64,000 nt of DNA. Source: Gammaproteobacteria bacterium. GTDB lineage: Bacteria; Pseudomonadota; Gammaproteobacteria; Eutrophobiales; Eutrophobiaceae. Each line of letters starts with the position of its first letter. Within the stretch, counting starts at the first letter, position 1. A model generated the notes under the pieces. That model was given only the letters and a program-made list of their open reading frames with translations, was not told where the DNA came from and did not search any database. Positions 10,371-24,748 of the stretch are shown here, piece by piece. The translations under genes and the position numbers were made by a program. Location: NCBI GenBank assembly GCA_963422205.2, contig CAXMWX010000005.1:160001-224000 (forward strand), read 5' to 3'.

Positions 10371-10925
10371 TCAGGATGCTTCGGTGGCAATGCCGATGAT
10401 GATCGCCGTGGAGCAATGATAGACACTGCTCGCCGTGCCCAGACACCAGTTGGTATCGTTGTTGGAAAAGGCGCGGTAAGGCGGGATGTCGCCCTCGTTA
10501 TTATTGCACAGACAACGGCTGCAACTGGTCTTGGCACAGCAGTCGTTGTAGGAAATAATGTAATCTTTCCCATCAGCCGGATTCGTGCAGGTACCTATCC
10601 AGGTCATGGGCGACATCTCTGTGCCCGGGGGACAACTCCTGTGGCTGCCACCGCAACAGCTACACAAAAAACCATCGATAGCACAGTAACGCCAGTAATC
10701 ACAGGAGGCCGGATCGCCCGGATCACCGGCCTGACCCGAGGTCTGTGGCGCCACTCCGGGATACCCCGAACCACCCCCGCCATCTGCCGCCCTGGCCACC
10801 GGTAACAAGGGCACCGCCGCTCCACCCACCAGCAGGCTGCCGAGGCCGGTCAAGAAGCTGCGCCTTGAGGTCTTGCGTGCAACGTGGCGTGCTGTGATGA
10901 CAACCAAACGATCCAGCCATTGCAT
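10371..10925 (-). CDS. mauA: TTQ amine dehydrogenase small (beta) subunit, aromatic-amine-dehydrogenase-like
   Basis: Tat signal SRRSFL; CDYWRYCAIDGFLCSCCGG; TTQ-forming Trp residues in TWIGTC and NDTNWC; multiple conserved Cys. Confidence 0.95.
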   Translation of the reverse strand: MQWLDRLVVITARHVARKTSRRSFLTGLGSLLVGGAAVPLLPVARAADGGGGSGYPGVAPQTSGQAGDPGDPASCDYWRYCAIDGFLCSCCGGSHRSCPPGTEMSPMTWIGTCTNPADGKDYIISYNDCCAKTSCSRCLCNNNEGDIPPYRAFSNNDTNWCLGTASSVYHCSTAIIIGIATEAS

Positions 10926-10937
10926 GATTATTCGCTC

Positions 10938-11579
10938 CTAATGTGAATTGCCGGAAGCAGGGGCTTGCTGATCCGAATCGACCGCAACCGCACGATGAAT
11001 GTATTCCTGCAACGAAGCAACACCGCGCTCTTTCGATTCAAACAGACTTTCCAGATGCTCGCGCGAATTGATGATGCCCATGGAGGCAACCTTGCCCTGC
11101 TCATCAATCAATACCGCATAGGGCAGTTTCGATACGCCATAACTGCGCCCGAGTATCTCCGATGAAATATAGCTAAACCTGGCCAGATCATACCTGGCGA
11201 TATAGGATTCATGATCGTGATGATCACCATCACTGGCCAGGATGATCTCCAGCCATTGGTTTTCACTTTTATGCGCCGACTTGACCATCGGCAGCAAGGT
11301 CTTGCATACCGGGCAGGTGGGCGAGATGAAAAACACCAGTGTGCTTTTACCGTTTCTCGGCACACCACCTACGGTTATCAGCCTGCCATTAATATCCAGT
11401 AACTCCAGTTGTTTGATCGGCTGTCCCACTTTAAGGGTCTGATTCATCATCAGCGCACCGGCGGGCGCCACCCGCTCATACAACACGCCGATCTGCCTGA
11501 CCAGGGCGAAGATAACCACCGCCATCAGCAGCACGACTATCCACAGCAAAACAGTCGAGATGAGCAATGCCTCAGCCAT
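10938..11579 (-). CDS. mauD: Amine dehydrogenase maturation protein MauD (thioredoxin-like)
   Basis: N-terminal TM helix, RQIGVLYERVAPAGAL, CPVC, NSREHLESL. Confidence 0.95.
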   Translation of the reverse strand: MAEALLISTVLLWIVVLLMAVVIFALVRQIGVLYERVAPAGALMMNQTLKVGQPIKQLELLDINGRLITVGGVPRNGKSTLVFFISPTCPVCKTLLPMVKSAHKSENQWLEIILASDGDHHDHESYIARYDLARFSYISSEILGRSYGVSKLPYAVLIDEQGKVASMGIINSREHLESLFESKERGVASLQEYIHRAVAVDSDQQAPASGNSH

Positions 11580-12117
11580 GTTGCGGCCTCAATGTTTTTA
11601 ACAATCCCCGGTTCACCAGCAGTTGATTGACAATGTTATAAAACAAACCGCCCACAGCGGTTGCCAGCACAATCACCACCCAGTCAAACCAGAGCAAAGG
11701 ACGCGCCGGTGGCGGATGCAGAATGATCCAGGCAAACATGAACAAGACGGCATTACGCAGCACCAGCCAGGCGCTGATTGCCTGCCGTTGATCAGGGGCA
11801 CCACAACCGCAATCAATGCTATCTCTGCCACGTAACAAATTCACAACGATTGCCAGCATGTAGACCAGCAACAACAGCATGGCACTGACCGCAGCAAATG
11901 AGGAGACCATCGGGACTAACAAAGCAAGGCCAGTGCCTGATTCGAGCAGCGGCAATAACCCGGCTATTGCATTGGCTGATCGTTCGGGTAACACGCGGTA
12001 GCCTTTTACAGTCTCGGTAAACTCAAGGGGGTTTTGCCACTTGTGAAACGCCGCCACCACAAAGACATAGCTCAACAACAGTGACAGTGTGATGGTGATG
12101 ATGGGATCAAAAACCAC
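11572..12117 (-). CDS. mauE: Amine dehydrogenase maturation membrane protein MauE
   Basis: Multi-TM protein with NLLRGR..IDCGCG and RN motifs; lies between mauB and mauD. Confidence 0.93.
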   Translation of the reverse strand: MVFDPIITITLSLLLSYVFVVAAFHKWQNPLEFTETVKGYRVLPERSANAIAGLLPLLESGTGLALLVPMVSSFAAVSAMLLLLVYMLAIVVNLLRGRDSIDCGCGAPDQRQAISAWLVLRNAVLFMFAWIILHPPPARPLLWFDWVVIVLATAVGGLFYNIVNQLLVNRGLLKTLRPQHG

Positions 12118-12129
12118 GGCCAGGCCCGG

Positions 12130-13308
12130 TCAATGCGCCGCATGGAGGATGAAGGGCGTCTCAAAGGCGCGCCCGCCGATCGTGCGCTGCCACTGCCCCG
12201 ACTCAATGTGATACACATCCAGGTTCATATCGCCATTGGTGACGACCAGATAGGGATCATCGTGCCGGGTCGCCTGAATGGAAACGCCCCAGTGCTTTAA
12301 TGTGATCTTGTCGATGCGTTTGCCGGTGACTGCATCGTAAACCCACACCTCGCTGCCGCCGTTTTTATGGCTGCCGTCAAACCCATCTTGGTGCATCAAC
12401 ACGAACAGGCGCCCGCTGTCTTCATCGGCGGTGATGATCTGCCAGCCGCCCGGACGCCAGTTCTGCTGTTGCTCTGCTGGCCTGCTCAAGGCCCAGCCCG
12501 GGCCGATCACCGGCTCTTCCGTACGCATGTCCACCGTCTGAATCATGCCCTTGAACGAGGGGTAATAAGCAATGCCGTCAATCATGGCCGGTTTGGCAAA
12601 CAGAGGATCATCATCGGCATGAAAAAACGGCTTCGTCCTGGCCTGTTTTTTCACCTGGCCGTTTTTATCCAGCTGCGTCACCAGCATGGTGTTATCACTG
12701 CACAGGCTGCCAAAGCTCAACTTGCCGGAGGGGTAGATCATGGCACAACCCGCAATGGGGATATCGTTCAAGATGCGGCGCTGCTCAATGTCAATCACCA
12801 ACACGCTGGCCGCCGGCGTGAAATTAAACACCAGCAGCAGCCGTTCATCATCGAGAAACTGCAAGGTATTCTTGTGGGTGACAAACTGCCCGCGTTTGCC
12901 GCCCGGCAGAATAATCTCATCGATCGGCGTCAGGTTTTCCTTATCATAAATGGTCAGCAGGTCTGTGCGCTCACCCCGCACACGGCGGCTGTACACGGTC
13001 TCGGCGACATATAATTCAGGCCGCTTGCTCGAAGCCAGGAAGGAGGCAAACTGTCCGGCAGGCAGCGAGCCTTTGTAATTCCTGTTCTTTGCCGCCACAT
13101 CAACGATAACCACCTTGCCGTCCACCAGGGAGAAGAAATTGCTATCGTGTGCATACACCCAGGTGGCCGGATACACTGCCGGTAACTTCTCTACCACAGG
13201 GATAGGCTCTGCCGACAGTTCAGCACGTGCCAGCGGTGCGATCACCATGGCCGGTATCAGTACACCCGGTAGCAGTATATTCGGTAACAGGGCGCTCCAG
13301 CATCTCAT
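12130..13308 (-). CDS. mauB: TTQ amine dehydrogenase large (alpha) beta-propeller subunit
   Basis: Signal peptide, YSRRVRGERTD, FNFTPA, WRPGGWQ, GSHKNGGSEVW. AGGTG RBS before ATG 13308. Confidence 0.93.
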   Translation of the reverse strand: MRCWSALLPNILLPGVLIPAMVIAPLARAELSAEPIPVVEKLPAVYPATWVYAHDSNFFSLVDGKVVIVDVAAKNRNYKGSLPAGQFASFLASSKRPELYVAETVYSRRVRGERTDLLTIYDKENLTPIDEIILPGGKRGQFVTHKNTLQFLDDERLLLVFNFTPAASVLVIDIEQRRILNDIPIAGCAMIYPSGKLSFGSLCSDNTMLVTQLDKNGQVKKQARTKPFFHADDDPLFAKPAMIDGIAYYPSFKGMIQTVDMRTEEPVIGPGWALSRPAEQQQNWRPGGWQIITADEDSGRLFVLMHQDGFDGSHKNGGSEVWVYDAVTGKRIDKITLKHWGVSIQATRHDDPYLVVTNGDMNLDVYHIESGQWQRTIGGRAFETPFILHAAH

Positions 13309-13385
13309 CTGCTTACACCTGCATGTATATTGGCAGCCATATGACCTGCCGCGCTGGCCCGCTCGTTCAATCACGCTTTCAAGGC

Positions 13386-15626
13386 TTAAAAACTGTAGGA
13401 AATACTGCCGCCTATCCATCGTGGCAGGCCGTAGTATTGCTCGGTCATGCCCAGCACGGTGGCCAGATCAAAGGTCTGCACCAGATACTCCTCATCAAAC
13501 AGGTTATTGACAAAGATGGCCGCTTCCCATTTTTGATCGGCGGTGGTGTAACTGACGCGGGAATTGACCACGGCATAGCCATTCTCGGTCACGGCCTGGG
13601 CCTGGGTTAAGCTGAAAAAATGCTCGGAGCGATAATGAACATCGCCCTGGATGGCGATGGCAGCACCGCCCGGCACCGACCACTCATAGCGCACCAGGCC
13701 ATTGAGGTTCCATTTCGGTGATTGTACCGGTTTGGTATCGCGCACACCGAGGCCAATCTGCAAGTCCACCGGCAGGTCGATATCCACATAGCCCACGCCG
13801 AACAGCAAGTCTAGGCCATCGGTTGGCGAGGCCTGTAATTCCACTTCAAAGCCATGATTTTTGGCATCGGCATTGAAGATAAACGTGGACAGACCGACGA
13901 TGCGAAAGGCCTGGAAATCCTGGTAGTCGTAATAAAACGCCGAGGCATTTAAGCGCGCCAGCCCGCCGGCCAGGGTGGACTTAAAGCCGATCTCATAGGC
14001 ATCGAGCTTCTCCTCATCAAAGCGCATCAGGGCATCATCCAGCGTAAGACCGGTAATATCCAACGGTGCATTAAAACCGCCGCCTTTAACACCGCGGTTC
14101 CAACTGGCGTAGACCAGGAGATCATCGGTTGGCCGCCAGTCCAGCTCCACCCGGGCCGACCACAGCCCACGATCCAGCTTGCCGTCATAGCGACCGCTCT
14201 CCGCAATAATATTCGGGTTACCGTTACGCTGGCGCATACCGGGTTCAAAATCCACAAAATTGCTGACATAGCTGTGGGTCTTCTCTTCCTCTATCCAGCG
14301 AAAGCCGGCGATGGCGGTGAACTGCTCCGTCAAGTCATATTCCACCTGCCCGAACACCGACCAGCTTTTGGTGTCCGTGGTGTACGGATTATCCGAGCCC
14401 TGAAAAGAACCATCGCTATCGACCAAGGGGCCGGGAACCCCAAGGGCGACGGCAACGCCCGGACCACTCAAGGGCTGCTCGGCGCCGTTGGCATCATTAA
14501 CATCGATGTCGAGATAGTAAAACCCCGCCACCCAGCGCATGACATCCGTCTCGCCATTGACGCGCAACTCCTGCGAGAACTGCCCGGCATCGGTATTTAG
14601 GAAAAAATTGAAATCGGCAAACGGCGAGGCGTCCGAGTCCTCAAGGTAGTCCCGTTTAATGTGCTGATAGTCGGTAATGGAGGTCAGTTGCATGCCATCG
14701 GCCAGATTCCATTTAAGCGTGCCGGATACGCCGTAGGATTCCATGTCCTGAAAACCAAACCGGTCATAGTCACCAGCGAACACATCGCCGTCCGCATCGC
14801 GGTAGCCGTTGATATTAGCCAGGTTGGGTGTCAGCTCGCCCAGCCCATCCCCATCCAGATCACGCGATGAGACGTTCTCGAACGGGCCGCCGGTGCGAAT
14901 ATTCTGCAAGGCGCCGCGCACATTGACCAGCAGCTCCAAATCGTCAGTCGGGCTGAACAGTAACTGCAAACGCGCCGCATAGTCATCGGCGTTATTAATG
15001 TCATCACCCAGCACGCGGTTTTCAATGTAGCCATCGTTATGGTGGGTGGCAACGGATAAACGGGCGGCCAGCGTATCACCGAGACCACCGCCCACGGCGC
15101 CCTGGAACTTCACCTGATTATAAGAGCCCAGCGTGACCTGGCCGTAGCCGTCAAATTCCTGGGTCGGCTTGCGGGTGACATAATGCGCCAGTCCGCCGGT
15201 GGCGTTGCGCCCGAACAGGGTGCCCTGCGGGCCGCGCAATAACTCAACACGCTCCATGTCAAACAGCAGAAAACCCGCCCCCGACATCTGGCTGACATAG
15301 ACCTCATCCACATAGATGGACACCGGGCTTTCCTGGTTGCTGATAAAATCATTCTGCGCCACGCCGCGAATGGCGAGAGCATAATTGGACGGCCCATTAG
15401 GCTGAATCGTGCTGACCCCAGGCGCCAGGGCGGATAACTCCTGGGCATTGGTGTAGCCCAGCGCCCGTAATTGCTCGCCGGAGAAAGCAGTGACTGAAAT
15501 ACCCACATCCTGCAAATTCTGCTCACGCTTCTGGGCAGTGACCACCACCTCTTCGAGCACGATTCGTGCATTAGCCACATGGAACAGGCCGAGACAGGCC
15601 AAAGCGAGACCGATTTTCTTCATCAT
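13386..15626 (-). CDS. TonB-dependent outer-membrane receptor
   Basis: Signal peptide, TonB-box region EEVVVTAQKREQ, plug motif VELLRGPQGTLFGRNATGG, terminal aromatic YSF. Confidence 0.96.
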   Translation of the reverse strand: MMKKIGLALACLGLFHVANARIVLEEVVVTAQKREQNLQDVGISVTAFSGEQLRALGYTNAQELSALAPGVSTIQPNGPSNYALAIRGVAQNDFISNQESPVSIYVDEVYVSQMSGAGFLLFDMERVELLRGPQGTLFGRNATGGLAHYVTRKPTQEFDGYGQVTLGSYNQVKFQGAVGGGLGDTLAARLSVATHHNDGYIENRVLGDDINNADDYAARLQLLFSPTDDLELLVNVRGALQNIRTGGPFENVSSRDLDGDGLGELTPNLANINGYRDADGDVFAGDYDRFGFQDMESYGVSGTLKWNLADGMQLTSITDYQHIKRDYLEDSDASPFADFNFFLNTDAGQFSQELRVNGETDVMRWVAGFYYLDIDVNDANGAEQPLSGPGVAVALGVPGPLVDSDGSFQGSDNPYTTDTKSWSVFGQVEYDLTEQFTAIAGFRWIEEEKTHSYVSNFVDFEPGMRQRNGNPNIIAESGRYDGKLDRGLWSARVELDWRPTDDLLVYASWNRGVKGGGFNAPLDITGLTLDDALMRFDEEKLDAYEIGFKSTLAGGLARLNASAFYYDYQDFQAFRIVGLSTFIFNADAKNHGFEVELQASPTDGLDLLFGVGYVDIDLPVDLQIGLGVRDTKPVQSPKWNLNGLVRYEWSVPGGAAIAIQGDVHYRSEHFFSLTQAQAVTENGYAVVNSRVSYTTADQKWEAAIFVNNLFDEEYLVQTFDLATVLGMTEQYYGLPRWIGGSISYSF

Positions 15627-18321: not shown

Positions 18322-19182
18322 TTACGGGCGTTTGCCGTAACGCCAGCGGGTGGCGAAGGTAAACACCCGCTCATCACACACATCAATACACCGCCCGCAG
18401 TTGGTGCAGTCACCACTTAAGATCAATGGGCTGGCCTGCTCGTTGGCCGGTTTCAATGCCGGGGCGATCACCTGGGGTTCAGGGCAGTGCGTAAAGCAAT
18501 CCCCACAGTCAGTGCATGCCTGCCTGTCAGCGGCTTTAATGCGGATCAGGGAGACCTTGCCCAGCACGCCATAGAACACGCCCACCGGGCAGAGATGCCC
18601 ACACCAGGCACGGCGGCTGACAAAGACATCCAGCAGAAATACCGCCAGCATGATCACCCAGGCCATGCCCATGCCGAAGACCAGCCCTCGTTGTAACAGG
18701 GTGATCGGGTTGACTATCTCCCAGGCAATCGTTGTGGTCAGGGCAGAGACGATCAGCACCATGATAAACAGCCAGTTGCGGCTGGATTTTTTCAGTGGCA
18801 GGCTGGCGCTGATCCCCAGTTGGGTACGCAACCAATAGGCCAGATCCGTGACGATGTTGATCGGACACACCCAGGAGCAATATGCCCGGCCGCCCAGCAG
18901 CAGGTAGATGATGACGACATTCAGCGCACCCATGCTCGCAAGCGTGCCCATCTTGTGGCCGGCGGCAATCGATTGCAGGTAGATATACGGATCAGTCAAG
19001 GGCAGGACAGAGAACACCGTACTGGAGGCAAGATTCCCTTTGAGGATCCACAGCCCATAGAGCGGCCCGGCAAGAAACAGGCCCAGCAATGTCAACTGCG
19101 AGGTGCGCCTTAGCAGCCACCATGTATGCCGGCTGAACCAGGAACGCCTGCTCGTTACAGACATGACGGCTTGCTGTCCCAT
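18322..19182 (-). CDS. napH: NapH/MauN-family membrane polyferredoxin (quinol dehydrogenase subunit)
   Basis: LRRTSQ, GRAYCSWVCP, WCGHLCP, two CxxCxxCxxxC ferredoxin motifs. Confidence 0.9.
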   Translation of the reverse strand: MGQQAVMSVTSRRSWFSRHTWWLLRRTSQLTLLGLFLAGPLYGLWILKGNLASSTVFSVLPLTDPYIYLQSIAAGHKMGTLASMGALNVVIIYLLLGGRAYCSWVCPINIVTDLAYWLRTQLGISASLPLKKSSRNWLFIMVLIVSALTTTIAWEIVNPITLLQRGLVFGMGMAWVIMLAVFLLDVFVSRRAWCGHLCPVGVFYGVLGKVSLIRIKAADRQACTDCGDCFTHCPEPQVIAPALKPANEQASPLILSGDCTNCGRCIDVCDERVFTFATRWRYGKRP

Positions 19183-19186
19183 GGCG

Positions 19187-19843
19187 TTAGCGGTCCTGCT
19201 TCGCCAGCACCGTTGGTAACACCTTGATGGACGCCTGCTCTGTCACGCACGCTTTCTCACACTTGCCGCAGCCGGTGCAATGGGCGGCATGGACTGTCGG
19301 CTCAAAATAGGTGCGGCGGCCGGTGCGTTTTTGCTCCATCGTGATCGCCTCGCCTTGCAGCGGACAGGCCAGATAACAGGCACGGCAATGGGCGGCGCCC
19401 GTGATGCTGTAGCAGGTATCCAAACCCGTCATCACCGCCACCCCCATGCTCGCCTGCCCGACATCATCAAGCTCCTTGCTCAAGGCATCGGTCGGGCAGG
19501 CGGCGGTACAGGGAATATCCTCGCACATCTCACAGGGCACCTGGCGGGCGATGAAATACGGCGAGCCAGTCGCCACGTCCTCGGCAAATGTGGCCAGGCG
19601 CAAGGTATCAAACGGGCAAGCACGCACACACAGGCCGCAACGCACACAGGCAGCCAAAAAGTCCTCATCATCAATGGCACCGGGCGGGCGCAGCGCCCAA
19701 GCCGGGGTCGAGACAGACTGCGCTGAATAGGCGCCAAGCAAGAGGCCGATGAGGCTGAAACCGCCCGCCGTTTGCAGGCACTGCCCGACAAACTGCCGCC
19801 GACTCAGGTAATGTGCGTGATCTGGATTCGCTGTATCGGCCAT
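19187..19843 (-). CDS. napG: NapG/MauM-family periplasmic 4Fe-4S ferredoxin
   Basis: Tat motif SRRQF, LRPPGA, CVRCGLCVRACP, PCEMCEDIPC, CTGCGKCEKAC. Confidence 0.9.
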   Translation of the reverse strand: MADTANPDHAHYLSRRQFVGQCLQTAGGFSLIGLLLGAYSAQSVSTPAWALRPPGAIDDEDFLAACVRCGLCVRACPFDTLRLATFAEDVATGSPYFIARQVPCEMCEDIPCTAACPTDALSKELDDVGQASMGVAVMTGLDTCYSITGAAHCRACYLACPLQGEAITMEQKRTGRRTYFEPTVHAAHCTGCGKCEKACVTEQASIKVLPTVLAKQDR

Positions 19844-19879
19844 ACCGCCCTCGTTAGCTTGCTACCCCCCCCCCAGGTA

Positions 19880-19908
19880 ACAATAGTACAGCCGTCCTAT
19901 TTATTCAA
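19880..19908 (-). promoter_or_regulatory. Candidate sigma70 promoter for napG-napH
   Basis: TTGAAT-N17-TATTGT on the minus strand, ~37 nt upstream of the napG start. Confidence 0.45.
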
Positions 19909-19954
19909 GCAGCAAGAGGAGGCCGGCACAACCACCTCAGCGGTTAGCAGCTAA

Positions 19955-20314
19955 TCAGCAACTTCTTATGCAGGCATTCTCTATCTCACGGCAATCGTAT
20001 CGACAAGATACGCTACCACCCCGGCAAGACAGATCACAGGTCTTCTTTTCTTTCAAACAACGATACTCACATCTTTTACGCTTTTTTTCTGATCTTTCAG
20101 CGAGAATTGCTCGCTTTATCCTGAGCACATCGCTTGGATAAACTGCAAACAGCAAGTCATTGTCGCTTGATTGCCCCGAGGCAAAGGGGTTGGACGCATC
20201 ACACAAGACCAGGGGGGCTGACTCACCAGCGATGGGTATCGCCTCATCGGCGATTGTGGCGGTGTTGGATAGGGTAGTAGCGACAAGGGATAACAGGCAG
20301 ATAAGGTGTTTCAT
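19955..20314 (-). CDS. Small secreted cysteine-rich protein (119 aa) with four CX3C motifs
   Basis: AGGAG RBS, then MKHLICLLSLVA signal-like N-terminus. C-terminus is KKRKR-CEYRC-X6-CDLSC-X6-CRYDC-X6-CIRSC-stop. Confidence 0.75.
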   Translation of the reverse strand: MKHLICLLSLVATTLSNTATIADEAIPIAGESAPLVLCDASNPFASGQSSDNDLLFAVYPSDVLRIKRAILAERSEKKRKRCEYRCLKEKKTCDLSCRGGSVSCRYDCREIENACIRSC

Positions 20315-20535
20315 ATTTTCAGTCTCCTGTGTTATTAGATGACACCCGACACGCAGCAGGGTGTCGGGCATTTCAACATGCGCTAACACAGGAAAGCACA
20401 CCCTACTTATTTCCGGGTGGTCTTGTATTCGTAGGATACCCGACCGGGGGGCTCCTGTGTTAAACGCAAGACACAGATTTCTGTTGAAGGAAACCTGTAT
20501 GCAGGGCATACTACACACGCAACATTAAAATGCAA
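20315..20535 (-). promoter_or_regulatory. Structured 5' leader and candidate promoter of the Cys-rich gene
   Basis: TTGCAT-N16-TAGTAT (20535-20508). RBS-containing 11-mer TAACACAGGAG occurs twice (20462-20452, 20334-20324) with its complement TCCTGTGTTA (20393-20384) between them. Hairpin CCCGACAC/GTGTCGGG at 20345-20368. Confidence 0.5.
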
Positions 20536-20628: not shown

Positions 20629-21105
20629 TCATAACTGCGTCTGTAACGGCAGTTCGGTCGTGTCCTTGATCTCGGTGACGGCGATGGTGGAGTGCATTTC
20701 CCGAATCATCGGCAAGCTCATCAAGTGATTGCGGATGAAGCGCTCATAATGCTGGATGTCTTTGGTGATGATCTTCAGCAGGTAATCCATGGTGCCGGTC
20801 ACGGTATAACAGGCCAGCACTTCAGGGAATTTGCGGATGGCTTTTTCAAACTCCTCCAGGTTTTCCCGACCATGGGCGGACAGGCTGATGGTAACGAACA
20901 CCACCACCTCCATGCCCAGCTTGACGTGATCCAGCACAGCGACCCGGCGCTTGATCAAGCCGGCCTGCTGCAAGCGGCTGATACGCCGCCAGCAAGGGGA
21001 CTGTGACAGACCGACCCGGGCGGCGACCTGGGCCGTGCTCAAGGCCGCATTACGCTGCAATAATTGCAATATTCGGATATCGCTGTCATTCAACTCAATC
21101 GGCAT
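20629..21105 (-). CDS. Lrp/AsnC-family transcriptional regulator
   Basis: DIRILQLLQ..A....VA.RVGLSQSPCWRRI HTH, CYTVTGTMDYLL RAM domain. Confidence 0.95.
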   Translation of the reverse strand: MPIELNDSDIRILQLLQRNAALSTAQVAARVGLSQSPCWRRISRLQQAGLIKRRVAVLDHVKLGMEVVVFVTISLSAHGRENLEEFEKAIRKFPEVLACYTVTGTMDYLLKIITKDIQHYERFIRNHLMSLPMIREMHSTIAVTEIKDTTELPLQTQL

Positions 21106-21117
21106 TACTTAACCTTT

Positions 21118-21149
21118 TTTATGCAAAAAATTAGATTATTTATGCAAAA
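21118..21149. promoter_or_regulatory. Phased TTTATGCAAAA direct repeat, candidate Lrp-family binding sites
   Basis: Identical 11-mers at 21118-21128 and 21139-21149 (21-bp period, two helical turns) in the AT-rich lrp/ior divergent region. Confidence 0.45.
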
Positions 21150-21238
21150 TATACCCGTTTTATCGAATGAATAAAATAATAATTTCCCTCCGTTTATCCT
21201 AAGATTGAGACCATTATCTGCAACGGAGTATCCTCACC

Positions 21239-24200
21239 ATGGCGCCCACACCTGTCCCCCCGGCAATGATTTCACTGGAAGATAAATACGCCCTGGATGC
21301 CACCCGTGCATACATCACTGGCATTGAAGCCCTGGTCAGGCTGCCCATCCTGCAACACCAGCGTGACCTGGAAGCAGGGCTGAATACCGCCGGCTTCATC
21401 TCCGGTTATCGCGGCTCCCCGCTGGGCAATCTAGACCAGTCACTGTGGCAGGCAAAGCCGCATCTGGACAAACATCACATCCACTTCCAGCCCGGTGTCA
21501 ACGAAGACCTGGCCGCCACTGCCGTCTGGGGTTCGCAGCAGGTGAACCTGTTTCCCCAGGCGAAGTACGATGGCGTCTTCGGCTTATGGTATGGCAAAGG
21601 CCCGGGGGTGGATCGCAGCATGGACGCCATCCGTCATGCCAATGCGTTTGGCACCGCAAAATACGGCGGCGTGCTGGCAATCGCCGGCGATGATCATGCG
21701 TGCAAGTCCTCCACCTTGCCGCACCAGAGTGAGCATCTGTTCATCGGCGCCTCCATTCCGGTGTTAAGCCCGGCCAATGTACAGGAGGTGCTGGACTTGG
21801 GAGTCTACGGGTGGGAATTGTCACGTTACAGCGGCTGCTGGGTGGCGTTGAAAGCGATCACGGAAAACATGGACTCCGCCCTATCGGCCGAGATCGATCC
21901 GCATCGGGTGAGCATAACCCGGCCGGATGATTTTGCCCTGCCCGATGACGGCGTCAATGCCCGCTGGCCGGACCTGCCGCTGGCGCAGGAGCGGCGGCTG
22001 AACAAATATAAAATTTACGCGGCGCGACATTTTGCCTATGTCAACCGGCTGAATCGGATCATGCTGGACAGCGATAACCCGCGCTTGGGAATCATCACGG
22101 CTGGCAAGGCATATCTGGATGTCTTGCAGGCGCTGGATGATCTGGGTATTGATGCGGCCGAGGCGGGGCGTATCGGCCTTAGGGTTTACAAGCTGGGCAT
22201 GAGCTGGCCGTTGGAGCCGCTCGCCACGCACGCCTTTGCTGAAGGGCTGGAGGAGATCCTGGTGGTGGAGGAGAAACGCAGCATTATCGAAGATCAACTC
22301 ACCGGGCAATTATACAACTGGCCAGTAGATAAACGTCCACGTGTGGTCGGCGAGTTTGATGAGCACGGGGCTGACTTGCTGCCGAACATCGGCGAGCTCA
22401 CCCCCGCCCTGGTCGCCAAGGCGATCGCCTCGCGCACCGGCAGGTTTTATACCAGCAAAACCATTGAGCAACGGCTGGCCTTTCTGACAGCAAAAGCGCA
22501 GCGCTTATCTGCCCCCCGAAATGTGCTCACCCGTGTGCCTTATTTTTGCTCCGGCTGCCCGCATAACAGCTCGACCAAAGTGCCGGCAGGCAGCCGGGCG
22601 ATGGCCGGCATAGGCTGTCACTACATGGTGCAGTGGATGGATCGCCAGACCCTGACATTCACACACATGGGCGGCGAAGGGGCCACCTGGATTGGTCAGG
22701 CGCCGTTTACCGACACCGAACATGTGTTTCAAAACCTGGGCGATGGCACGTATTTTCACTCCGGCATTCTTGCCATACGCGCCGCCATCGCCGCCGGGGT
22801 CAACATCACGTATAAAATTCTCTACAACGATGCCGTGGCCATGACCGGCGGGCAAAAAGTCGAGGGCAATTTGAGTGTGAGCCAGATCGTCAACCAGCTT
22901 ATCGGCGAGGGTATCAAACGTATTGCGATCCTCACCGATGAGATGAAGCCTTACCCTGACATCTTCCCTGGCTTTGCTGGCCTTAGCATTGATCAGCGTG
23001 ACCGGCTTGAGGCTATTCAACTGGAACTGAGACAGATAACCGGCACCACGATCATCATCTATGATCAGACCTGTGCTGCCGAGAAACGTCGGCGCCGGAG
23101 AAAAAATCTGCTGCCAGGGCCGGCCCGACGTATTTTTATCAACGAGGAGGTCTGCGAAGGCTGTGGGGATTGCGGCATCCAGTCGAATTGTTTATCGGTC
23201 CTGCCCAGGGAAACCCCGCTTGGACGCAAGCGACAAATTGACCAGCATGCCTGTAATCAGGACTTCAGTTGTGTTGAGGGCCTTTGCCCCAGTTTTGTCT
23301 CCGTGATGGGCGCTGAGTTGAAGACAGGCAAGCCCGTTGGACAGACAACGATAGTCAATGCCTTGCCGAAGCCGGACCTGCCATCACTCGCCCAGCCCTG
23401 GAATATCCTGATCACGGGCATAGGCGGCACGGGTGTGCTGACTGTCAGCTCTATCCTGGCCATGGCGGCACACATTGAGGGCAAGGGTTGTTCGGTATTA
23501 AACCAGACCGGACTGGCACAAAAATTTGGCTCGGTCATCAGCCATGTCCGCATCGGCGCACAGCAGGACGATATCCATGCGGTAAGAATAGCGGCCGGTG
23601 ATGCCGATCTCCTATTAGGTGGCGATCTGGTGGTGGCGGCCTCGGATGAGGCACTGACCAAACTGCACCGGCAGCGCTCATATGCCATCATCAATGCCTG
23701 TCACTCGCCAACGGCGGATTTTATTACCGCACCGGATGCCATATTTCCAGCCGATGCCATGCGTACCACTGTGCTGGAAGAAGTTGGGGCGGACAAGGCC
23801 TGGTTCATTGATGCGATGAGTATCAGCACGCAGATACTGGGCGATCCCATCGCCTGCAACGTATTGCTGCTGGGGTATGCCTGGCAACGGGGGTTGATCC
23901 CCGTCAGCGCCGAGGCTATAAATCAGGCGCTTGCGGTGAACGGCGTGGCGGTTGAACTTAACCGCCAGGCATTTCTGTGGGGCCGGCGCACAGCATCTGA
24001 TGAGGAGGCCGTGCTGGCCAGGGTGGATAGAACAGAAGCCGGACAGAAAGCGCCGGTGCAGATCGATGAGATCATTCGAGACAGACATCAGCGCCTGTGT
24101 GATTATCAGGACAAGCCCTGTGCAGATGCGTATGAAAAATTTATCACCCACACAAGAGCGGCTGAAAAACAGGCTGTCGGCCAGACGGTGGCGAATAAAA

Positions 24201-24748
24201 ACGGAGAGGAATTCAGCCGTGCCGTGAGCTGTAATCTGTATAAACTTATGGCATATAAAGATGAATATGAAGTCGCCCGGCTGTATAGCAATGGAAAATT
24301 TATGCAGCAACTCAATGCCACATTCAGCGGCGACTTCACCTTGCGCTTTCATCTGGCCCCGCCGATCCTGGCGCGCCGGGATCATGCCAGCGGCAGATTG
24401 AAAAAACGTACCTTCCCACAGGCAACGCTGGTCTTGTTTGCCTTGCTGGCAAAGCTGAAATATCTGCGTGGCGGTTGGTTTGATGTATTTGGCTATAAGG
24501 AAGAGCGCATGCGGGAGCGGCGGCTGATTGCTGAGTATAAAGCAACTATCAATGCGATTTTGACCGACATCAACGCGGAAAATTATGCCACAGCGGTAAA
24601 GTTAGCCCGGCTGCCGGAGCAAATCAGAGGATTTGGTGTGGTCAAGTCTGCGAATATGAAAAAAGCAGCACGTGAAAAAACCAGGTTACTGAATCAATTT
24701 TACCATCGCTTGCCAGAAGCACGGCGTTCACCTGATCAAACGGCATAA
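21239..24748 (+). CDS. Fused indolepyruvate/phenylpyruvate:ferredoxin oxidoreductase (IorAB family)
   Basis: SGYRGSPLG, NEDLAAT, WYGKGPGVDRS, FCSGCPHN, TPP motif GDGT...YNDAVAMTGGQ, CEGCGDC ferredoxin motif, GIGGTG, AYKDEYEVARL. Confidence 0.93.
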   Translation: MAPTPVPPAMISLEDKYALDATRAYITGIEALVRLPILQHQRDLEAGLNTAGFISGYRGSPLGNLDQSLWQAKPHLDKHHIHFQPGVNEDLAATAVWGSQQVNLFPQAKYDGVFGLWYGKGPGVDRSMDAIRHANAFGTAKYGGVLAIAGDDHACKSSTLPHQSEHLFIGASIPVLSPANVQEVLDLGVYGWELSRYSGCWVALKAITENMDSALSAEIDPHRVSITRPDDFALPDDGVNARWPDLPLAQERRLNKYKIYAARHFAYVNRLNRIMLDSDNPRLGIITAGKAYLDVLQALDDLGIDAAEAGRIGLRVYKLGMSWPLEPLATHAFAEGLEEILVVEEKRSIIEDQLTGQLYNWPVDKRPRVVGEFDEHGADLLPNIGELTPALVAKAIASRTGRFYTSKTIEQRLAFLTAKAQRLSAPRNVLTRVPYFCSGCPHNSSTKVPAGSRAMAGIGCHYMVQWMDRQTLTFTHMGGEGATWIGQAPFTDTEHVFQNLGDGTYFHSGILAIRAAIAAGVNITYKILYNDAVAMTGGQKVEGNLSVSQIVNQLIGEGIKRIAILTDEMKPYPDIFPGFAGLSIDQRDRLEAIQLELRQITGTTIIIYDQTCAAEKRRRRRKNLLPGPARRIFINEEVCEGCGDCGIQSNCLSVLPRETPLGRKRQIDQHACNQDFSCVEGLCPSFVSVMGAELKTGKPVGQTTIVNALPKPDLPSLAQPWNILITGIGGTGVLTVSSILAMAAHIEGKGCSVLNQTGLAQKFGSVISHVRIGAQQDDIHAVRIAAGDADLLLGGDLVVAASDEALTKLHRQRSYAIINACHSPTADFITAPDAIFPADAMRTTVLEEVGADKAWFIDAMSISTQILGDPIACNVLLLGYAWQRGLIPVSAEAINQALAVNGVAVELNRQAFLWGRRTASDEEAVLARVDRTEAGQKAPVQIDEIIRDRHQRLCDYQDKPCADAYEKFITHTRAAEKQAVGQTVANKNGEEFSRAVSCNLYKLMAYKDEYEVARLYSNGKFMQQLNATFSGDFTLRFHLAPPILARRDHASGRLKKRTFPQATLVLFALLAKLKYLRGGWFDVFGYKEERMRERRLIAEYKATINAILTDINAENYATAVKLARLPEQIRGFGVVKSANMKKAAREKTRLLNQFYHRLPEARRSPDQTA

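Follow-up and report, generated by a model that had tools for sequence, protein, structure and literature searches.

Disulfide-stapled helical hairpins are prized as ultra-stable peptide scaffolds and toxins, and the described ones that we found are eukaryotic. In the consulted portions of two papers they occur as antimicrobial, inhibitor and toxin peptides (PMC4695807, PMC11722136). The plant α-hairpinin motif C1X3C2-Xn-C3X3C4 is held by two disulfides in the part of the source at hand (PMC4695807), and the toxins B-IV (1VIB) and acrorhagin I, which serve as comparators in the CS-alpha-alpha class, appear in the same partial texts as hairpins with four disulfides (PMC4695807, PMC11722136); one of those of acrorhagin I joins a helix to the loop, according to the portion consulted (PMC11722136). 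The small Tim proteins (twin CX3C) and the Cox17/CHCH proteins (twin CX9C) are presented, in the excerpts available, as helix-loop-helix folds with two inter-helix disulfides in the oxidising intermembrane space of mitochondria. A literature search for bacterial stapled hairpins, which was not exhaustive and drew on partial texts, returned mitochondrial and unrelated proteins only. Here we describe a bacterial candidate: a 119-codon open reading frame (ORF) on the minus strand of a 64,000-nt stretch of DNA from a Gammaproteobacteria bacterium (GenBank assembly GCA_963422205.2, contig CAXMWX010000005.1, positions 160,001 to 224,000). This whole stretch is called the window below, and coordinates count from its first letter. 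We read the ORF, tentatively and with rather less than even confidence, as a foreign, RNA-repressed gene for an exported, cationic, disulfide-stapled hairpin that is probably a toxin or inhibitor.

Two described RNAs bear on the leader of this gene. The c4 antisense RNA of phages P1 and P7 lies in the leader of the operon that it represses (immI, with the order c4-icd-ant). Citron and Schuster reportedly showed in 1990 that loop segments of c4 are complementary to the downstream ribosome-binding site (RBS) region and to an upstream duplicate of it, the a and b targets. The other RNA, sRNA-Xcc1 (RF02221), is said to have been published by Chen et al. in 2011 as a trans-acting small RNA, going by the title. 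In the accessible part of one report it precedes symE in the most widespread Xanthomonas integron cassette (10.1101/2025.06.18.660453), and in that of another it precedes an ORF6N gene in APSE phages (10.1101/2020.03.17.996009). No description of sRNA-Xcc1 as a c4-type leader directed against the Shine-Dalgarno sequence (anti-SD) was found in the literature searched, as far as the available text of those sources extends.

The ORF runs from an ATG at 20314-20312 to a stop codon at 19957-19955 and is preceded by a Shine-Dalgarno (SD) sequence, GGAG at 20327-20324, 9 nt ahead of the ATG. When the coding body was shuffled 20000 times with dinucleotides preserved and the start codon kept in place, the frame stayed open in only 15 cases. 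A six-frame translation of the genome, 5.98 million residues long, contains the spacing of the eight C-terminal Cys residues a single time, against 2.5e-5 occurrences expected from the Cys frequency of that translation. The four-Cys sub-motif is at chance level, with 12 occurrences (3 of them inside the ORF) and 12.2 expected. A tandem DNA repeat as the source of the Cys periodicity was ruled out: Tandem Repeats Finder (TRF) returned 0 tandem-repeat rows for the region, and the three 33-nt units coding the Cys repeats have merely 11-16 of 33 bases in common. We consider it highly probable that the ORF is a genuine coding sequence. Local GC is 47-48% at the ORF and 58-63% in the flanking genes, and GC at third codon positions (GC3) is 0.50 as compared with 0.65 in long genes. 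Because of the leader, module and locus comparisons given below, we read the ORF as a foreign gene rather than a non-gene despite its neutral codon statistics.

The best pointer to the reality and kind of this gene is the anti-SD leader upstream of it, which would make the ORF the cargo of a portable, translationally repressed module. Over 227 nt (20535-20309), from the promoter through the RNA and the hairpin to the SD, the DNA is 79% identical to a copy in another genus (g7, genome G007). The similarity ends at ATGAAA, at codon 2, and the G007 cargo (L033:1411-1790) is an unrelated 53-residue protein with four CXXC pairs and without a signal peptide. A 22-mer of the leader gave 0 matches in public genome and metagenome contigs, a blank that says little because the G007 copy has the same 22-mer. 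Both hexamers of the promoter-like site (Table 1) are retained in the G007 copy, where the -10 reads TAATAT, and the alignment of the two copies begins at this site. From these features we infer promoter activity at 20508-20535; a consensus promoter scan did not flag the site.

The RNA in the leader matches the full RF02221 model (positions 1-87, E 3.5e-5 per genome) and is the only copy in the genome. The match covers the conserved AAUACAA...GGAAAUAA core, and we treat the element as a diverged relative of RF02221 and not as a curated member. A cmscan search at E up to 1 returned RF02221 only and no Rfam C4 (RF01695), with the proviso that overlapping clan members would be hidden. In the minimum free energy (MFE) fold of the leader the anti-SD loop A' hides the SD (-68.9 kcal/mol, z -4.07, with 0 of 200 shuffles as stable); in the centroid fold A' pairs with the upstream decoy A1 instead of the SD. 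One compensatory double change from A-U to C-G relative to the G007 copy keeps the A1:A' helix. B', which forms the outer stem of the RNA on its 3' side, also has an alternative partner at 20345-20352, and since this arm is common to the outer stem and to hairpin B':B2, the two folds are mutually exclusive. No U-tract follows the closing stem of the RNA, and read-through into the ORF is therefore likely.

This arrangement recurs in related genomes. A search of 126 genomes of the order and 151 of the class for members of the leader family gave matches in 7 and 14 of them, respectively; the class tally counts two unpublished genomes, whose three loci were left out. An ORF with SD and ATG starts 26-69 nt past the RNA in 28 of the 32 loci, the distance in the window being 40 nt, while three loci have no ORF after the RNA and one has only a doubtful ORF at 155 nt. 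The cargo genes are unrelated between loci. Among 24 cargo products scanned there were two matches to SymE_toxin, one each to P22_AR_N, KilA-N, Phage_pRha and Bro-N, and one sub-threshold match to B-box; the other 17 had no family. One of the family-less cargo proteins, with a signal peptide, matches a phage family of unknown function. As a side observation, loci L027-L029 have in common a cargo family of 57-63-residue proteins with two CXXC pairs and no known family.

We compared the pairing of each RNA with its own SD region and with those of other loci. This test covered 26 loci, after removal of the three cargo-less loci, the 155-nt locus and two near-duplicates from one genome. The mean duplex energy was -15.74 kcal/mol for own targets and -13.01 kcal/mol for the SD regions of other loci, and the longest Watson-Crick run averaged 6.88 and 5.03 nt, respectively; the own-target mean was reached in 0 of 5000 permutations. 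In 17 of the 26 loci a run of at least 7 nt complementary to the locus's own SD region lies at RNA positions 49-58, where its sequence varies in concert with the bases immediately 5' of the SD. Across these 26 loci sRNA-Xcc1 thus behaves, to judge from its pairing, as a cis-encoded, locus-specific anti-SD leader of the c4 type.

In the N-terminus of the ORF product, MKHLICLLSLVATTLSNTATIA, a basic n-region leads into a hydrophobic core of 12 residues, and T-I-A occupies positions -3 to -1. By inspection and hydropathy it divides into MKH, LICLLSLVATTL and SNTATIA, followed by DEA. The core has a mean Kyte-Doolittle value of 2.48 over its 12 residues, and inspection finds the features expected of a substrate of Sec and signal peptidase I (SPase I), namely a basic n-region, a core of 7-15 residues and small residues at -3 and -1; it finds no lipobox in the N-terminus. 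We are fairly confident that the product is exported. The initial annotation of this DNA had described a 119-residue ORF with an RBS, a signal-like N-terminus, an acidic spacer, KKRKR and a periodic eight-Cys segment reaching the stop codon, and had taken it for the gene of an exported protein. Each part of that layout was confirmed at 19955-20314 of the minus strand, and both the resistance of the frame to shuffling and the signal features seen by inspection agree with the reading as an exported protein gene.

The eight Cys of the domain stand at positions 82, 86, 93, 97, 104, 108, 115 and 119, with gaps of 4, 7, 4, 7, 4, 7 and 4, and the final codon before the stop encodes Cys119. The domain contains neither His nor Met, residues 77-119 carry a net charge of +7, and there are extra Cys residues outside the domain at position 6, within the signal peptide, and at position 38. 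The C1X3C2-(X)n-C3X3C4 motif is found twice, nested, as 82/86...115/119 and 93/97...104/108. The pairs 82+119, 86+115, 93+108 and 97+104 each sum to 201, and the four Cys of each predicted helix fall inside a 60-degree arc; these positions fit an antiparallel ladder of four predicted disulfide rungs. Genes of the DsbA and DsbB families are present in the genome (matches above the cut-offs), and together with the Sec signal they lead us to expect oxidised Cys and not free thiols. If the protein is exported, a four-rung disulfide hairpin is moderately probable.

AlphaFold2 weakly supports a helix-loop-helix for the eight-Cys domain. The whole-protein model has a helix at residues 60-96, a loop at 97-101 and a second helix at 102-117, with block pLDDT values of 77-89 over residues 71-119, and the domain-only model has helices at 60-98 and 108-117. 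Foldseek returned no match at E <=0.001 for either model. Its weak rows included the four-disulfide helical-hairpin toxins 6ux5, with an rmsd of 1.5 over 43 columns, a TM of 0.67 on the target and E 4.8, and 1vib, aligned over 42 columns at 28% identity with E 6.7. A homodimer prediction for residues 57-119 scored 0.00 and counts neither way. Of the stapled hairpin proposed in the initial annotation, the Cys geometry (the sums of 201 and the 60-degree arc) therefore stands, while support from AlphaFold2 is weak and Foldseek adds no significant match.

Csp copper storage proteins are Cys-lined four-helix bundles, and the eight Cys of the ORF product, confined to a 60-degree arc on each predicted helix, have the geometry of Cys-lined helices. 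The protein could therefore be a periplasmic, thiolate-rich metal binder or store for Cu(I), Zn or Cd, its Cys reduced or metal-loaded on one helix face, and two hairpins could form a Cys-lined four-helix bundle. Against this, Pfam and NCBIfam assign no family, Csp included, the model is a two-helix hairpin and not a four-helix bundle, and the domain lacks the His and Met residues mentioned above. The Sec signal and the DsbA and DsbB families predict oxidised Cys, a scan of 11 neighbouring genes turned up none for metal homeostasis, and a metal store would hardly be expected behind a repression leader of the phage or toxin-antitoxin (TA) type. We judge metal binding, which the initial annotation had offered as an alternative, to be distinctly improbable.

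The same annotation had proposed that a peptide of ~4.4 kDa is freed at the basic site. In such a precursor the acidic spacer would be a neutralising pro-piece, a proposal that bears solely on maturation and leaves room for a toxin role. Eukaryotic antimicrobial-peptide precursors have a signal, an acidic region, a polybasic run and a cationic Cys domain, and the order here (signal, acidic spacer of -5, KKRKR, cationic Cys segment of +7) resembles that layout. However, no dibasic-specific protease was found, none having been searched for, and KKRKR falls within a single unbroken helix in both AlphaFold2 models (60-96 or 60-98). The first helix far exceeds the second in length, a difference suggesting that the stalk belongs to the folded structure. 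With no processing enzyme identified and the basic run lying within a predicted helix, we regard release of the peptide as unlikely.

The ORF product has no known family or detectable homologue in the collections searched, in keeping with the failure of the initial annotation to recognise one. Pfam, NCBIfam, PHROGs and PADLOC yielded zero families. The sole match in 5.8 billion clusters (word-indexed search) was the protein's own long-start copy P0002, and phmmer against 1.84 billion representatives returned P0002 and P0003 and nothing else. P0003 is a 2630-residue protein of near-identical repeats of ~60 residues that matches query residues 13-48 in 20 stretches (E 5e-22); we read this match as an artefact of repeats and composition, as summed repeat hits can imitate homology. 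phmmer against PDB sequences gave no E under 0.39, the best match in 60 relatives was not better than E 0.008, ESM Atlas had no match for the whole protein or for residues 60-119, and blastn against plasmids had none either. A 38-residue domain gives sequence searches little power.

The ORF lies at a synteny break: likeness to the AsnC-IOR loci of three relatives extends no further than the AsnC stop codon. On the napG side, a palindromic motif of the type TAGGAC-N6-GTACTA at 19883-19900, ~40-55 nt ahead of the napG-like start, is kept in 6 of 6 aligned napG loci of the family; the control region of napGH is accordingly native, and the module stops short of it. As a side observation, this motif is a candidate operator of the napGH-like operon. 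The weak hairpin past the stop codon, a possible terminator, is no more stable than shuffled sequences. On these comparisons the putative module is a minus-strand unit spanning ~20535 to 19910, with its 3' end between 19955 and ~19905, and the best explanation of the ORF is that it is horizontally acquired cargo of a small portable expression module. A reading as an integron cassette was dropped: the best match to the integron integrase model TIGR02249 in the genome scores 80.6 bits (cut-off 265), and no convincing attC-like pair of core and inverse core was seen by eye in the 111 nt past the stop.

Genes resembling napG and napH follow the ORF on its own strand after 111 nt, with no strong terminator in between. 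The ORF product might accordingly assist the NapG/NapH-like (MauM/MauN-type) quinol dehydrogenase that they encode, as an accessory protein or assembly factor, or be a redox substrate of it. Seven napG orthologue loci of the same family (55-73% identity) speak against such a link, because 0 of 7 carry such an ORF. Upstream of napG, two of these loci carry napA, and the same-strand frames present there in the remaining five resemble, from the ORF lists, shadows of genes on the opposite strand. In addition, napGH keeps its own control region, from 19900, downstream of the ORF, and the ORF has its own promoter-leader module in common with the unrelated G007 locus. A role in the dehydrogenase thus appears most improbable, and a foreign cargo gene remains our preferred reading of the ORF.

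A few further observations concern these neighbours. The napG-like and napH-like genes (18322-19843) are without napA, which lies directly upstream of the orthologue in two genomes of the family, G004 and G020. The NapG-like product scores 266.2, just under the equivalog cut-off of 269, and above the cut-off of the MauM/NapG subfamily; an aromatic-amine-dehydrogenase-type mauBEDA operon lies 7 kb off (10371-15626), so a MauM/MauN role is possible. Between the operator-like motif and the napG start, a minus-strand run of ten G (19865-19874), the same in contigs of two runs, could be slippage-prone and affect napGH expression. On the other flank, 20629-24748 holds a divergent AsnC/Lrp regulator and a fused 1169-residue indolepyruvate-type ferredoxin oxidoreductase (TPP_enzyme_C, POR, DUF6537). 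This AsnC-oxidoreductase pair is 81-85% identical in four genomes of the family, and the conserved block ends at the AsnC stop.

Table 1 Features of the putative module and of the predicted protein, with window coordinates.
Feature	Position	Strand	Remarks
Promoter-like site	20508..20535	-	-35 TTGCAT (20535-20530), 16-nt spacer, -10 TAGTAT (20513-20508); 5' edge of conserved module
A1, upstream copy of the SD-containing 11-mer (SD mimic or decoy)	20452..20462	-	Exact 11-nt direct repeat plus inverted repeat; can pair with the anti-SD
sRNA-Xcc1-like RNA element in the 5' leader	20355..20444	-	RF02221 match, 38.7 bits
A', 10-nt anti-SD, loop of the second RNA hairpin	20384..20393	-	100% complementary to both 11-mers
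Hairpin B':B2, CCCGACAC / GTGTCGGG	20345..20368	-	B' doubles as the 3' arm of the RNA outer stem
A2, 11-mer with the SD of the ORF	20324..20334	-	MFE fold pairs A2 with A'
ORF, putative Cys-hairpin protein precursor	19955..20314	-	119 codons plus stop; ATG 40 nt past the RNA element
Predicted Sec-type signal peptide, residues 1-22	20249..20314	-	Cleavage after T-I-A; inspection and hydropathy
Acidic spacer, residues 23-76, net -5	20087..20248	-	Modelled as disordered to ~residue 59; contains unpaired Cys38
KKRKR, residues 77-81	20072..20086	-	Within predicted helix 60-96
Eight-Cys domain, residues 82-119, (CX3C-X6)x3-CX3C	19958..20071	-	Predicted helix - RGGSVS loop - helix
Weak hairpin, possible terminator, likely 3' limit of the module	19916..19938	-	17 nt past the stop; -11 to -15 kcal/mol

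Taken together, the module would consist of a promoter, a ~190-nt leader with a diverged sRNA-Xcc1-type RNA, the SD and ATG, the ORF and a weak hairpin. The leader may work like the c4 antisense RNA of phage P1, through a 10-nt loop complementary to its own RBS and to an upstream decoy. Being complementary to both, the anti-SD could hide or expose the SD, and translation would normally be held down. When made, the protein would be exported by Sec and its signal peptide cut after residue 22; in the oxidising periplasm the last 38 residues would fold as an antiparallel helix-loop-helix, and four inter-helix disulfides (82-119, 86-115, 93-108 and 97-104) would lock the ladder. The product would be a very stable, strongly cationic (+7) hairpin on a longer helical stalk. 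Its most likely role would be that of a toxin, antimicrobial or inhibitor, directed at the cell envelope or at a target that is periplasmic or foreign. A toxic or inhibitory product would in turn explain tight RNA repression, as for the SymE toxins and phage antirepressors that follow the same leader family. What the sequences themselves show is the ORF with its statistics, the homology of the leader, the complementarity of the anti-SD and its covariation between loci, the foreign composition and the lack of homologues in the searches made; transcription, export, disulfide pairing and toxic or inhibitory activity are all things that we infer.

Several observations weigh against this reading. 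As to the gene, the codon log-likelihood is -503.0 in the ORF frame and -504.0 in one antisense frame, with a composition background of -494.8, and GC at the three codon positions (GC1/2/3) is flat, so that codon statistics are neutral. No RNA run is listed as containing the stretch, and the gene was found in one genome only, a single copy from which selection is not measurable. As to the leader, its score of 38.7 bits lies under the Rfam gathering score of 53. As to the fold, the predicted mature chain has nine Cys and therefore one that is unpaired. The AlphaFold2 models were single-sequence, made without an alignment, and moderate confidence was reached in the best model only, both for the whole protein (61.2, the other four 36.5-42.2) and for the domain (68.2, the others 44.2-49.8). 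Foldseek with the domain-only model gave no toxin matches, and a wide VIA-align search returned only generic helical hairpins (Z <=6.6). As to the activity, charge, fold class and the other cargo of the leader suggest a toxin or inhibitor by analogy only: 17 of the 24 scanned cargo products are without known function, and no immunity gene, outer-membrane export system or protease was found next to the ORF.

The neutral codon statistics and the lack of a listed RNA run would also suit a non-functional relic or a never-translated frame, that is, a captured module with silent or decaying cargo, as would the orphan status of the protein, with only its own copy in the 5.8 billion clusters and 1.84 billion representatives and nothing better than E 0.008 in the 60 relatives. 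But the frame is intact where few shuffles stay open, and the Cys lattice is perfect against an expectation of 2.5e-5, where decay would quickly erase it. The SD, the ATG and the anti-SD are likewise all intact. Contigs of two DNA runs from a single study contain the stretch without change; this counts for little, since the stretch may come from one of these runs. We therefore consider a relic very unlikely. Metal binding, processing at KKRKR, a napGH link and a silent relic each lack positive support in the analysis, and the RNA-repressed, exported, stapled hairpin is the reading that we carry forward.

If a bacterial four-rung hairpin of this kind is real, it would be producible in an ordinary periplasm, would offer a compact, engineerable scaffold and would be a case of convergent protein design. 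The sRNA-Xcc1 leader, for its part, appears to move with interchangeable cargo that comprises SymE toxins, phage antirepressors and many small unknown proteins; as it precedes repressed, interchangeable cargo, it may serve as a usable flag for tightly repressed, possibly toxic small genes. A bolder proposal, which we regard as rather unlikely, is that the ORF encodes the first prokaryotic disulfide-stapled helical-hairpin toxin, a perfectly periodic four-rung domain that arose independently of its counterparts in plants, scorpions, cone snails, sea anemones and nemerteans. It would be the periplasm-exported lethal or defensive cargo of a portable c4-like, RNA-repressed module, and the two would form a new type-I-like toxin-antitoxin or abortive-infection unit, with a toxin that works from within the periplasm.

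How, then, does the locus compare with the described systems? The predicted protein shares with the CS-alpha-alpha peptides, as far as the consulted parts of the sources describe them, CX3C motifs on two antiparallel helices, a short loop, a composition rich in Lys and Arg and a signal peptide, and its predicted pairing has four rungs, as in the accounts available of B-IV and acrorhagin I. Unlike the CS-alpha-alpha peptides, it is bacterial and without detected sequence homology to them, and its hairpin ends a predicted mature chain of 97 residues, whereas those peptides are free and 30-55 residues long. Its CX3C-X6 unit is regular and four-fold and its predicted ladder symmetric, unlike the helix-to-loop disulfide given for acrorhagin I in the portion of the source at hand. 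In comparison with the small Tim and CHCH proteins it has four CX3C motifs rather than two, is bacterial, carries a predicted Sec signal and has no Pfam match; like them, going by the excerpts available, it would be a helix-loop-helix stapled in an oxidising compartment, here the periplasm as the predicted equivalent of the intermembrane space.

The leader differs from sRNA-Xcc1 in scoring below the curated threshold (38.7 < 53 bits), in having no U-tract and in reading as a cis anti-SD leader, sRNA-Xcc1 having been published as trans-acting; it resembles sRNA-Xcc1 in matching the full model and in lying at a fixed short distance ahead of a cargo ORF. Unlike c4, it would control a predicted secreted Cys-rich protein and not an antirepressor. 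As in c4, an RNA segment, here 20384-20393, is complementary both to the downstream RBS and to an upstream duplicate, and the cargo of the wider leader family includes proteins of the antirepressor type (P22_AR_N, KilA-N, Rha and Bro-N).

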